Source: a virus (lineage: Duplodnaviria; Heunggongvirae; Uroviricota; Caudoviricetes). Taken from it: 12,446 bases of DNA. The first letter of the stretch is position 1, and every line of letters begins with the position of its first letter. Positions 1 through 11,151 of this stretch are shown here, piece by piece. The stretch covers positions 1-12,446 of the IMG/VR virus record IMGVR_UViG_2875718163_000001. The stretch is one strand, 5' to 3'. The notes under the pieces were generated by a model that saw nothing but the letters and a program-made list of their open reading frames with translations, was not told the origin of the DNA and did not search any database. The position numbers and the translations under genes are program-made.

Positions 1-1164
1 TTACGCCTTCTTTATATCCTCCATAATTTCAGAGTGGGACATATTTGGGACATTATCACCAAAAATGTCGTCTATTTTCCTCGCATGCTCTGTCAAATGA
101 TTAGGCGCAAGGTGAGCATACCTACGAACCATTTCTATGGACTCCCATCCGCCCATTTCCTGAAGCACTGATAATGGGACGCCTGACTGAATCAGCCAGC
201 TTGCCCAGGTGTGTCTGAGGTCATGGAAACGGAAATCTTCAATTCCTGCACGACGACAAGCTGATAGCCATGATGTCTTGCTGTCGATGCGCATCTTCCT
301 GACCGCAGGCGTTGATGTTCCATCTGCTCGCTTAGCCGCCTTGGTATGTACAAACACCCATTTGTGATGCTTGCCTATTTGATCACGCAACACTTTACAG
401 GCGGTATCGTTCAGCGCCACACCAATGGCGCGGTTTGATTTGCTCTCTTCTGGATTCACCCAGGCAACTCGTCGCTGCATGTCGATTTGTTGCCATTCCA
501 GATTTATGATGTTCGACTTTCTCAGACCAGTTGCCAGCGCAAACTTGACGACAGATTTCAGTGGTTCGGGGCACTCATCAATAAGGCGTTTTGCTTCCTC
601 CTTTTCCAGCCATCTGACTCGCTTGTTTCTGACCGCTGGTATCTTGATGACAGGCGCTTTTTCCAGCCACTTCCAGTCGCGTTCTGCAGCACGGAGAATG
701 GCCTTTATCATGGCAAGATGCTTTGCCTTTGTCTGAGTTGATACTGGCTTTGGTTCATAAACAGGCAGTTCTTTACCTTTCCTGATGGCGGCCTGAACTT
801 TCTGTTTCCATATTTCTTTCGTCTTTCTGTTATGCATTCTGCTTACAGCAGAGTAAATCTTTGCCTCCGAGATATCTTTAAGCCTTATACCCTCAAAATG
901 TTCAAGCCAGAACTCAATCCGGCTTTTATCTGAATCGAGAGATTTTTTATCAGCTTTTTCCTCAAGCCATCTTAGGCAGGCCTCTTCAAAAGTGACATCA
1001 GGTAAATCCCCTAGCTTTTCTACTCGCCAGAGTTCTGCTTTTCGCTTGTCGTGCAACTCCTGAGCTTGCCGTTTGTCCTTTGTGCCAAGAGATTCCTTAA
1101 TTCGTTTCCCGCCCGGGAGCGAATACGAGGCATACCATATTTCATTTCTGCGGAAGAGTGACAT
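1..1164 (-). CDS. intD: Phage-type tyrosine integrase (site-specific recombinase), apparently intact
   Basis: 387-aa minus-strand ORF whose stop is the complement of 1-3. Translation carries the tyrosine-recombinase boxes (...GLRKSN..., ...HDLRHTWAS..., ...VRRYAHL...). N-terminus [14 protein letters not shown]... matches Rac/DLP12-type prophage integrases as I recall them. Symbol assigned from the DLP12-like context. Confidence 0.92.
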
Positions 1165-1962: not shown

Positions 1963-2390
1963 TGATCTTACCCAGCAATAGTGGACACGCGGCTAAGTGA
2001 GTAAACTCTCAGTCAGAGGTGACTCACATGACAAAAACAGTATCAACCAGTAAAAAACCCCGTAAACAGCATTCGCCTGAATTTCGCAGTGAAGCCCTGA
2101 AGCTTGCTGAACGCATCGGTGTTACTGCCGCAGCCCGTGAACTCAGCCTGTATGAATCACAACTCTACAACTGGCGCAGTAAACAGCAAAACTTTCATTC
2201 GCTGAAAGTGGAATGTATCCATGGAGAACACTTTATCAGCCGGGAAATAATGCGGGCAACGGTGTTTAATTATATCGAATGTGATTACAATCGGTGGCGG
2301 CGGCACAGTTGGTGTGGCGGCCTCAGTCCGGAACAATTTGAAAACAAGAACCTCGCTTAGGCCTGTGTCCATATTACGTGGGTAGGATCA
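1963..2390 (+). mobile_element. IS3-family element with a large internal deletion (428 bp retained), both terminal inverted repeats present
   Basis: Left end TGATCTTACCCAGCAATAGTGGACAC; right end reverse-complements to TGATCCTACCCACGTAATATGGACAC (imperfect terminal IRs). Internal ORF is IS3 OrfA N-terminus fused to OrfB C-terminus. Flanking triplets are ATC (1960-1962) and ACC (2391-2393), so a clean 3-bp target duplication is not seen. Confidence 0.88.
2028..2360 (+). pseudogene. In-frame fusion of IS3 OrfA N-terminus (HTH region) to the last ~50 aa of the OrfB transposase; catalytic domain absent
   Basis: [55 protein letters not shown] | [55 protein letters not shown]; junction near 2190-2193. 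Track ORF starts at an upstream GTG (2019); ATG at 2028 is the IS3 orfA start. Confidence 0.65.
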
Positions 2391-8311: not shown

Positions 8312-8695
8312 ATGCGTGATATTCAGATGGTTCTTGAGCGTTGGGGAGCGTGGGCGGCTAATAATCATGAAGATGTGACCTGGTCGTCCATTGCCGCCGG
8401 TTTTAAGGGATTAATTACTTCAAAAGTAAAATCTCGCCCGCAATGTTGTGACGATGACGCGATGATCATTTGCGGGTGCATGGCCCGTCTGAAAAAGAAC
8501 AACAGCGATTTGCACGATTTATTAGTAGATTATTATGTAGTCGGTATGACATTCATGTCACTGGCAGGTAAGCATTGCTGCTCTGATGGTTATATCGGGA
8601 AAAGGTTACAGAAGGCTGAGGGCATAATTGAAGGGATGTTAATGGCATTAGATATCCGGTTAGAGATGGATATCGTTGTTAATAACTCTAATTAA
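8312..8695 (+). CDS. quuD: Late-gene antiterminator Q homologue (phage 82/21 Q type)
   Basis: 127-aa [25 protein letters not shown]... with Cys-rich region (..[18 protein letters not shown].., ..HCCSDG..). GGAG 8 nt upstream of ATG 8312; the track ORF from TTG 8297 is an extension. Sits where lambdoid Q genes sit. Confidence 0.85.
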
Positions 8696-8834
8696 TATGC
8701 CAATTGTTTACTAAAAATTATTAAAAATGGGGCGTTGAGACGCCCCCAAAAATAAAGGGTAATATATAACAGAAGGTTTATATAGTTAGAAGCAAGGTTG
8801 TGCTTCTAAAGGAAGTGGCTTGAGGGAGCCACTT

Positions 8835-8876
8835 ATATGTTGGGGAGGCAACGCCTCCCGCAACATATCTTTTTCG
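8835..8876 (+). terminator. Intrinsic terminator: long hairpin followed by CTTTTTCG
   Basis: ATATGTTGGGGAGGC (8835-8849) pairs with GCCTCCCGCAACATAT (8853-8868), with a 7-bp perfect GC-rich core, a 3-nt loop and one bulge, then a T-run. 140 nt downstream of quuD. Confidence 0.6.
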
Positions 8877-8884
8877 TAATCAGA

Positions 8885-8944
8885 TTAGAACTGGTAAACC
8901 AGACCTACAGCAACGATGTCATCAGTGCTTACACCGAGTGCTTT
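8885..8944 (-). pseudogene. nmpC: 3' stub (~19 codons) of an OmpC/OmpF-family porin gene
   Basis: Minus-strand reading gives ...KALGVSTDDIVAVGLVYQF-stop, the characteristic porin C-terminus ending in Phe. Porin-like sequence is lost upstream of this, so only the gene tail survives. Confidence 0.5.
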
Positions 8945-9095
8945 AGGGAAGGTGCGAATAAGCGGGGAAATTCTTCTCGGCTGACTCAGTCATTTCATTT
9001 CTTCATGTTTGAGCCGATTTTTTCTCCCGTAAATGCCTTGAATCAGCCTATTTAGACCGTTTCTTCGCCATTTAAGGCGTTATCCCCAGTTTTTA

Positions 9096-9395
9096 GTGAG
9101 ATCTCTCCCACTGACGTATCATTTGGTCCGCCCGAAACAGGTTGGAAAAAATGCCAGAGACTCCGCTGAAGTGGTGGAAACCGCATTCTGTACTTTCGTG
9201 CTGTCGCGGATCGCAGGTGAAATTGCCAGTATTCTCGACGGGATCCCCCTGTCGGTGCAGCGGCGTTTTCCGGAACTGGAAAACCGACATGTTGATTTCC
9301 TGAAACGGGATATCATCAAAGCCATGAACAAAGCAGCCGCGCTGGATGAACTGATACCGGGGTTGCTGAGTGAATATATCGAACAGTCAGGTTAA
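9096..9395 (+). pseudogene. nohD: C-terminal fragment of terminase small subunit Nu1; N-terminal DNA-binding half missing
   Basis: From ~9147 the ORF reads [82 protein letters not shown], recalled as the lambda Nu1 C-terminus. Upstream codons are unrelated and the frame is closed by TAG at 9093-9095. The 26-nt overlap with the following A start is as in lambda. Confidence 0.75.
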
Positions 9396-10113
9396 CAGGC
9401 TGCGGCATTTTGTCCGCGCCGGGCTTCGCTCACTGTTCAGGCCGGAGCCACAGACCGCCGTTGAATGGGCGGATGCTAATTACTATCTCCCGAAAGAATC
9501 CGCATACCAGGAAGGGCGCTGGGAAACACTGCCCTTTCAGCGGGCCATCATGAATGCGATGGGCAGCGACTACATCCGTGAGGTGAATGTGGTGAAGTCT
9601 GCCCGTGTCGGTTATTCCAAAATGCTGCTGGGTGTTTATGCCTACTTTATAGAGCATAAGCAGCGCAACACCCTTATTCCAGCTGGCTTCGTGGCTGTTT
9701 TCAACAGTGATGAGTCATCGTGGCATCTCGTTGAAGATCATCGGGGTAAAACGGTTTATGACGTGGCTTCCGGCAACGCGTTATTTATTTCTGAACTCGG
9801 TCCGTTACCGGAAAATGTTACCTGGTTATCGCCGGAAGGGGAGTTTCAGAAGTGGAACGGTACAGCCTGGGTGAAAGATGCAGAAGCAGAAAAACTGTTC
9901 CGGATTCGGGAGGCGGAAGAAACAAAAAACAGCCTGATGCAGGTAGCCAGTGAGCATATTGCGCCACTTCAGGATGCTGTAGATCTGGAAATCGCAACGG
10001 AGGAAGAAACCTCATTGCTGGAAGCCTGGAAAAAATATCGGGTGTTGCTGAACCGTGTTGATACATCAACTGCACCTGATATTGAGTGGCCTACGAACCC
10101 TGTCAGGGAGTAA
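9370..10113 (+). pseudogene. tfaD: Chimeric ORF: terminase large subunit A N-terminus (~103 aa) fused in frame to the C-terminal ~145 aa of a tail-fibre assembly protein (Tfa)
   Basis: [33 protein letters not shown]...[12 protein letters not shown] is lambda gpA as I recall it. From [29 protein letters not shown]... to ...[13 protein letters not shown] is Tfa family. Junction at about 9678/9679. Confidence 0.8.
9949..10089 (+). repeat. Direct repeat copy 1 (~141 bp, Tfa C-terminal coding segment)
   Basis: AGTGAGCATATTGCGCCACTTCAGGATGCTGTAGATCTGGAAATCGCAACGGAGGAAGAA... recurs at 10996-11136 with scattered substitutions. Confidence 0.8.
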
Positions 10114-10127
10114 TCATTGGGATTATG

Positions 10128-10177
10128 CCGCAGCACGTCTTAAGCAAGAACATGCTGCGGTTGGATGCTATTTTTTT
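10128..10177. terminator. Hairpin between convergent genes (possible bidirectional terminator)
   Basis: CCGCAGCA (10128-10135) / TGCTGCGG (10153-10160) 8-bp stem with a 17-nt loop, followed by a T7 run at 10171-10177. Located between the Tfa-fusion stop and the ybcY stop. Confidence 0.4.
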
Positions 10178-10752
10178 CCTGAAGCGGAAAACATTACTAC
10201 AGTACCTTGAACCTTGGTTTTAACATTCTCGAAATGCTCTGAGAGTATATGTGTTAAGCCTTCTTCGGAATCTTTTGTGTTTGAAAAGATGCCTTTCTGA
10301 TTGTAAATGCGCATCAGTTTTTGACCGAAGCTATTGTGCACAACTCCATCGCCAAGAATTGTGGCTCCGTATAGAGTTCCATCGTCAGTTAAGGCCTGCG
10401 CCGCATTGCGTATTACACAGCTTTTTGTAGATATATTTCCAGGCAGGCAGTGAAGAAGGTAAGACATGGAAATGGAATCAAATTGACCATGTAACGCCGC
10501 GGGATAAGGTTCAAAAACATCATGGCTAATTTTATGTTTAATTTTTGATTCCCCAGCCCTTGTAGATGCCGCGTTCAGGCTAGCTTCGTTCAAATCCATT
10601 AAAGATATCAGACTACTCTCAGGTACGTGAGTAAGGTAAAACCCAGTTCCAACACCAATATCCAGATGGTTGTTACCTAAATGTTCCAGAAAGTGTGGAA
10701 GAAGGTGTTCCTTTGTAGGACATCCCCATGCAAGCCGATTTGATACTCCCAA
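10168..10752 (-). pseudogene. ybcY: Class I SAM-dependent methyltransferase, apparently lacking its native start
   Basis: 194-aa minus ORF with SAM motif ..HLDIGVGTGFY... The frame stays open 23 codons upstream to a stop with no ATG or GTG; the only in-frame start is the TTG taken by the track. Suggests N-terminal truncation. Confidence 0.7.
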
Positions 10753-10890
10753 AACCCACCAGTCATAAAGCTTTAGGGTAAGTGGTGTGTAAATTCTAGC
10801 CCCATCATCTGTGTTTTTTTATTAATTTCACCATGTTATAGTTTTATTTGTGAATTAAATCAATTATGGCAATGAATTACAAGGGGTTAA

Positions 10891-11151
10891 ATGCTGCCGC
10901 AGCATAGCGATATTGAAATAGCCTGGTATGCTTCAATACAGCAGGAGCCGAATGGCTGGAAGACCGTCACCACACAGTTCTACATCCAGGAATTCAGTGA
11001 GTATATTGCGCCACTGCAGGATGCTGTAGATCTGGAAATCGCAACGGAGGAAGAAAGATCGTTGCTGGAAGCCTGAAAAAAGTATCGGGTGCTGCTAAAC
11101 CGTGTGGACACTTCCGTAGCACCAGATATCGAGTGGCTTATTCAACCATAA
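10891..11151 (+). pseudogene. tfaX: Tail-fibre assembly (Tfa)-like gene with in-frame premature stop
   Basis: [64 protein letters not shown](11074-11076)[24 protein letters not shown]. The stop sits where copy 1 has TGG (Trp in ..LEAWKKY..). AAGGGG upstream of the ATG. Confidence 0.7.
10996..11136 (+). repeat. Direct repeat copy 2 (~141 bp, Tfa C-terminal coding segment)
   Basis: See copy 1 (9949-10089). Carries the TGG->TGA difference at 11074-11076. Confidence 0.8.

Follow-up and report, generated by a model that had tools for sequence, protein, structure and literature searches.

The open reading frame at positions 9370 to 10113 of the window (the whole 12,446-nucleotide stretch of DNA that was analysed) joins the beginning of a lambda-type terminase large-subunit gene, A, to most of a tail-fibre assembly gene, tfa. 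The best account of this chimera, to which we assign a probability of about 90%, is that an ancestral and complete DLP12-type prophage lost approximately 22 kb of DNA and left the open frame behind as an inert scar. The chimera was already known: we confirmed that it corresponds to a pair of pseudogenes, aaaD' and 'tfaD, long annotated in the cryptic DLP12 prophage of E. coli K-12. The exact size of the deletion can be read from a relative that has not undergone it and that occupies this chromosomal locus. The locus is a textbook example of the grounding of a lambdoid prophage, in which the virion genes are lost and an open chimeric frame is left; the scar is real but ordinary, and is of little import beyond bookkeeping.

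The open reading frame joins terminase and tail-fibre assembly sequences

The frame begins with GTG at 9370 on the plus strand and closes with a stop codon at 10111-10113; the positions of this and the neighbouring features are collected in Table 1. Its first 103 amino acids are those of lambda gpA residues 1-103 (100% identity by BLASTP, E 2e-71), and at the DNA level all 308 of the 308 nucleotides at 9370-9677 agree with lambda 711-1018, an identity that is shared with the A gene of E. coli NCTC9699. Amino acids 103-247 align with residues 50-194 of lambda Tfa, where 133 of 145 positions (92%) are identical (BLASTP, E 6e-99). Judged as sequence similarities, the matches to gpA and Tfa are both far beyond chance. 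The first-pass annotation had assigned codons 1 to about 103 to the terminase, in agreement with these alignments, and had described the rest as the C-terminal two thirds of a tail-fibre assembly protein. The C-terminal origin of that part is sound, but the fraction was understated, for 145 of the 194 Tfa residues, or about 75%, are present.

The two parental proteins have not been preserved to the same extent. The Pfam family GpA_ATPase (PF05876) is matched by amino acids 47-102 of the chimera (E 4e-10) over profile positions 3-60 of 247; the ATPase domain is therefore incomplete, only its first quarter (about 24%) being present. The C-terminal nuclease and prohead-binding part of gpA has no Pfam match in the chimera, and 538 of the 641 gpA codons are gone. 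We infer that the product, if made, cannot be a terminase, because it would lack the nuclease domain altogether and have about 24% of the ATPase domain. The tail-fibre assembly domain Caudo_TAP (PF02413) lies at amino acids 125-244 (E 3.5e-45), where it covers positions 1-130 of a 131-position profile and scores 153.8 bits against a cut-off of 22.1. The native N-terminus of the assembly protein, corresponding to residues 1-49 of lambda Tfa, is missing and gpA sequence stands in its place. The other frames and the opposite strand of 9370-10113 gave no Pfam matches.

The chimera keeps the context in which translation of A starts in lambda: a GTG codon, GGGG 7 nt upstream of it, and an overlap with the preceding gene, nohD. 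The start of A and the stop codon of the nu1 homologue (9393-9395) overlap by 26 nt, as they do in lambda, where nu1 occupies 191..736 and A begins at 711. The earlier description of a 247-aa chimeric frame with a lambda-like overlap at its start was thus accurate.

Table 1. Positions of the chimeric frame, its parts and the features around it in the window
Feature	Position	Strand	Basis or comment
Chimeric ORF, 247 aa, GTG start	9370..10113	+	MG1655 aaaD' + 'tfaD; 739/744 nt identical to MG1655 and KLY
aaaD' (gpA codons 1-102 + 2 nt of codon 103)	9370..9677	+	MG1655 pseudogene b4634, 581354..581662
'tfaD, tail-fibre assembly gene, codon 50 to stop	9678..10113	+	Entire Caudo_TAP domain kept
TfaD CDS as annotated (b0561, 187 aa, UniProt TFAD_ECOLI)	9550..10113	+	MG1655 581534..582097
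Deletion junction, TAT	9675..9677	+	Common to both parent genes, same codon phase
Five differences from MG1655/KLY tfaD (9765, 9768, 9771, 9774, 9775; D138N)	9765..9775	+	Alignment
Rfam IS009 (RF02111) match	9872..10070	+	227.8 bits vs gathering score 117
ybcY, class I SAM-dependent methyltransferase	10168..10822	-	Right-hand neighbour of scar
tfaX, second, older C-terminal tfa fragment	10891..11076	+	Direct repeat with tfaD
nohD 3' part (nu1 homologue, codons 100-181 + stop)	9147..9395	+	Pfam Phage_Nu1 97-164 of 164; MG1655 alignment
Scaffold gap	9146..9146	.	N in CP022466.1; 6,341 bp of MG1655 hidden
99-aa ORF, GTG start, IS5 remnant into nohD frame	9096..9395	+	Created by gap at 9146
113-aa ORF resembling in-frame IS3 InsE::InsF fusion	2019..2360	+	Created by gap at 2191

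The two genes meet at a three-nucleotide microhomology

The trinucleotide TAT at the point of fusion belongs to both parents. In A it consists of the third base of codon 102 and the AT of Ile103; in tfa, of the third base of codon 49 and the AT of Ile50. From 9675 on the sequence is in the tfa register, and 9678 is the first base that can be attributed to tfa only. Because TAT has the identical codon phase in A and in tfa, the reading frame is preserved across the join, and tfa can be read on in its native frame as far as its own stop codon. The in-frame outcome of such a join is by itself a 1-in-3 chance. An in-frame join had been placed previously at about 9678/9679, which is right to within 1-3 nt, and it had been proposed that alignment to lambda A and Tfa be used to check for microhomology; the alignment reveals the 3-nt TAT.

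The chimera is a known K-12 locus that marks essentially a single lineage

The window aligns to positions 564815..584430 of the E. coli K-12 MG1655 chromosome, the DLP12 prophage from intD to appY, from which it differs by two gaps and at a few bases (five SNPs within tfaD at 9765-9775 and a small change near 1485-1490). The MG1655 annotation divides the frame into aaaD (b4634, a pseudogene) and then tfaD (b0561, formerly ybcX), and the annotated start of TfaD is Met61 of the chimeric frame, within the terminase-derived sequence. PGAP labels the same pieces 'terminase large subunit, missing C-terminus' and 'tail fiber assembly protein, missing N-terminus', and the protein cluster to which the chimera belongs carries the UniProt name TFAD_ECOLI. 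The junction and its neighbours in MG1655 (nohD upstream; ybcY, tfaX and appY downstream) are as in the window; the window differs from MG1655 in five clustered bases of tfaD, which correspond to the tfaR allele, and in a nohD gene that is truncated in appearance only. The ybcX/tfaD gene and an adjacent 3.5-kb patch resembling the lambda cos region have already been discussed by Poteete et al. 2004 (PMC545071).

When a 46-nt probe centred on the junction was used to count genomes, it was found in 360 of 5,426 complete E. coli genomes, with 100% identity in every match. Sixty carriers were sampled and these were overwhelmingly laboratory strains of K-12 or recipients with genomes of K-12 size, among them MG1655, W3110, DH5alpha, C600, HB101, MC4100 and J53. 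An exact scan for the junction in 185,579 species-representative genomes returned two records only, both from E. coli. The junction is essentially a marker of one lineage, and because its carriers are essentially one clonal lineage, the intactness of the reading frame carries no conservation signal.

Two apparent rearrangements, and probably a five-base patch, reflect the source assembly

The window is the sequence of GenBank CP022466.1 except at positions 2191 and 9146, where the record has N and the window has A. CP022466 is strain DS1 (hipQ), which was assembled from 2x90 Illumina reads with CLC, SSPACE, PAGIT and GapFiller and with MG1655 as guide (bioRxiv 10.1101/2020.08.28.271171). At 9145/9147 the window lacks 6,341 bp of MG1655 sequence, from the interior of IS5 to codon 99 of nohD, and has one extra base; at 2191/2192 it lacks 830 bp within IS3. 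The gap at 9146 hides the rest of IS5, nmpC, essD, rrrD, rzpD, borD, ybcV, ybcW, ylcI, cos and the 5' part of nohD. The whole of this region, full-length nohD included, is present in the parent strain KLY, and nohD is full-length in MG1655 too. The single Ns at 2191 and 9146, together with the intact KLY sequence, rule out real deletions of 6.3 kb (IS5 to nohD) and 830 bp (IS3). The truncated nohD and the IS3 'fusion' are unresolved single-N scaffold gaps at repeats and not deletions, and any feature that spans 2191 or 9146 is artefactual, as in the case of the two short frames in Table 1. The first-pass annotation had noted a nu1 fragment without a start, which is literally what the window contains but is not the biology of the locus, for 9146 is a scaffold gap. 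The missing start is therefore no ground for its expectation that the chimera might be poorly translated, nohD being complete in MG1655 and in KLY. There is a general caution here: features of the window that touch IS elements or prophage paralogues need to be checked in the source record before they are given a biological reading.

All five of the clustered differences in tfaD match the allele of the Rac paralogue, tfaR, and the patch is flanked by tfaD/tfaR identity of 83 nt on the left and 85 nt on the right. The patch was not found among the K-12 complete genomes listed; it is present in other short-read contigs and in several metagenome contigs that have an intact nohD. It may have originated in a short gene conversion or, more likely, in the mis-resolution of a repeat by short reads. 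Recoding or engineering was ruled out as its source, the patch being exactly tfaR. Elsewhere in the window, in the exoD pseudogene at about 1485-1490, the comparison with MG1655 sets GCTAT-CTGG against GCTGTACT-G, a difference that may be peculiar to the strain or may be a mistake in the assembly.

An undeleted relative at the same locus sizes the deletion

E. coli NCTC9699 (NZ_LR134228.1) has an undeleted DLP12-type prophage at the same locus, between argU and appY-ompT. On its left side are argU, intD, quuD, an intact porin gene, essD, rrrD and nohD, and on its right side are ybcY, tfaX', appY, ompT, envY and nfrA. Its A gene is full-length (1,926 nt), as is its tfa gene (585 nt). Between the two lie W, the portal and protease genes, D, E, FI, FII, Z, U, V, G, T and H, and further on M, L, K, I, J, lom and a 3.2-kb stf. 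By comparison with this prophage K-12 lacks 21,988 bp, from codon 103 of A to codon 50 of tfa, with TAT at both edges. The earlier claim that the entire head and tail gene block had been deleted is borne out by this comparison.

The NCTC9699 prophage resembles DLP12 in its integration site and flanks, in an A gene that is identical over the retained 308 nt, and in a Tfa product that ends in TNPVRE like TfaD and unlike lambda Tfa; it differs in having the 21,988 bp with all of the head and tail genes, and in having an intact ybcY. Lambda resembles DLP12 in the overlap of nu1 and A, the GTG start, the identity of the first 103 gpA codons and the 92% identity of Tfa 50-194. Lambda differs in that 21,103 bp lie between the breakpoints (the K-12 junction corresponds to an absence of lambda 1019..22121) and in that its Tfa ends in PAVPVME. 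In the region 3529000-3576500 of NCTC9699 the prophage is apparently complete, with all virion genes and an intact nmpC-type porin gene; it also holds exo/bet/gam, a repressor region and O/P, and a SIR2-family gene adjoins its immunity region. This prophage could be a live relative of DLP12.

The loss of the head-tail block has a parallel in a second lambdoid remnant of K-12, Qin, where nohA overlaps stfQ. The Qin segment (MG1655 1634310..1636367) aligns with lambda 58-719, after which the match picks up again at about 21245, in the interior of stf. Its breakpoints are unlike those of DLP12, lying about 9 nt into A and within stf rather than tfa, and Qin has kept a full-length tfaQ. The loss in Qin is independent of the DLP12 deletion and parallel to it.

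Origin of the junction and the question of a product

The comparison with NCTC9699 shows that the ancestor was a complete DLP12-type prophage, from which about 22 kb was lost between codon 103 of the terminase gene A and codon 50 of tfa. The join is as a single RecA-independent (illegitimate) deletion at the 3-nt TAT microhomology would have left it, a single event being assumed. Lost with this DNA were the rest of A, W, the portal and protease/scaffold genes, D, E, FI, FII, Z, U, V and G, and also T, H, M, L, K, I, J, lom and stf, together with codons 1-49 of tfa. The halves of the chimera have diverged to unequal extents, the A' part being 100% identical to its comparators and the tfa part about 96.6% identical to NCTC9699 tfa at the nucleotide level and 92% identical to lambda, and tfa paralogues are known to recombine readily (PMC545071). 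Both observations would suit a fusion that did not come from one deletion but was built up stepwise, or was produced when distinct prophages recombined. We regard such an origin as unlikely, given that one clean microhomology junction accounts fully for the structure and that the TNPVRE C-terminus and the ybcY-tfaX-appY segment are orthologous to those of the undeleted prophage. The unequal divergence also leaves room for mosaic recombination, which may have preceded the deletion or followed it. The chimera might also be suspected of being an assembly artefact itself, like the two gaps in CP022466.1, its source being a reference-guided short-read scaffold that is faulty at repeats. This suspicion has a negligible chance of being right and is refuted by the occurrence of the identical junction in the 360 complete genomes, including MG1655, W3110, DH5alpha and KLY.

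What the deletion left is most likely an inert remnant in a late operon that is normally silent, with the in-frame state of the join a 1-in-3 accident. In the literature on tfaD, aaaD, ybcX, b0561 or b4634 we found neither a product nor a phenotype described, although aaaD, tfaD and the b-numbers mostly match unrelated acronyms; the locus is mentioned incidentally in a transposon hit list (PMC11587861), tfa homology has been used in Red recombination (PMC545071), and antisense transcription that is suppressed by Rho crosses tfaD (PMC5909445). Residual activity of a putative product, as a chaperone or as a decoy for Nu1, is improbable. The complete Caudo_TAP domain, the alignment of the last 65 amino acids of the chimera to the Mu Tfa chain in PDB 5YVQ (the only structure matched by sequence, none being found for the gpA part) and the retention of tfaD as a CDS in the reference annotation could all be taken as signs of an exapted tail-fibre chaperone. 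In that case TfaD would be made, either as 187 aa from Met61 or as the 247-aa chimera, and would help to fold the side tail fibres (StfR, StfE, lambda Ur Stf, T4 gp37) of lambdoid phages that superinfect the host or already reside in it; lambda Tfa is reportedly able to replace T4 gp38. This is improbable when it is considered that the first 49 residues of Tfa have been replaced, that no sigma-70-like promoter was found in 8600-10400, that the late operon is QuuD-dependent and normally silent, that K-12 already has full-length TfaR and TfaQ, that carriage of the junction by essentially one clonal lineage offers no conservation signal, and that the literature on tfaD/aaaD is silent about a product or phenotype. 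A cognate stf was not found beside 'tfaD within the window, and one does exist in the undeleted NCTC9699 prophage. The gpA N-terminus could in principle bind NohD, or the Nu1 protein of a phage, and hinder the packaging of lambda-like DNA: about the first 48 residues of gpA are said to specify Nu1 binding, and amino acids 1-103 of the chimera are identical to gpA. A decoy of this type is hardly credible in K-12, the classical permissive host for lambda. It is very improbable too that antitermination of the late operon by QuuD leads to translation of the chimera, or of the form that starts at Met61, and that the protein then affects other phages in trans, whether as an additional chaperone for side tail fibres or as a decoy that binds Nu1; if this were true, the scar of a deletion would have been turned into a factor in phage-host interaction.

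Features adjoining the scar

The match to the Rfam family IS009 falls entirely within the coding sequence of tfa and has the same strand. Its region has a minimum-free-energy z score of -0.94, and 38 of 200 shuffled sequences fold at least as well, so that no folding signal stands out from the shuffles. The match probably reflects the conservation of coding sequence among tfa paralogues. To the right of the scar, ybcY is a frameshifted pseudogene in K-12 and an intact 222-aa gene in NCTC9699. Beyond it, tfaX forms a direct repeat with the 3' end of tfaD (9937-10093 and 10984-11140, 157 nt at 85% identity). The module that consists of tfa, ybcY on the opposite strand and a tfa fragment was matched in 4,417 of the 5,426 E. 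coli genomes, and many of these matches lie in other prophages. A 45-aa open reading frame on the plus strand (10086..10223), which overlies the end of tfaD and part of ybcY, is labelled 'nucleocapsid protein' by PGAP (WP_071592174.1); no Pfam family supports this label, and the call is probably spurious.
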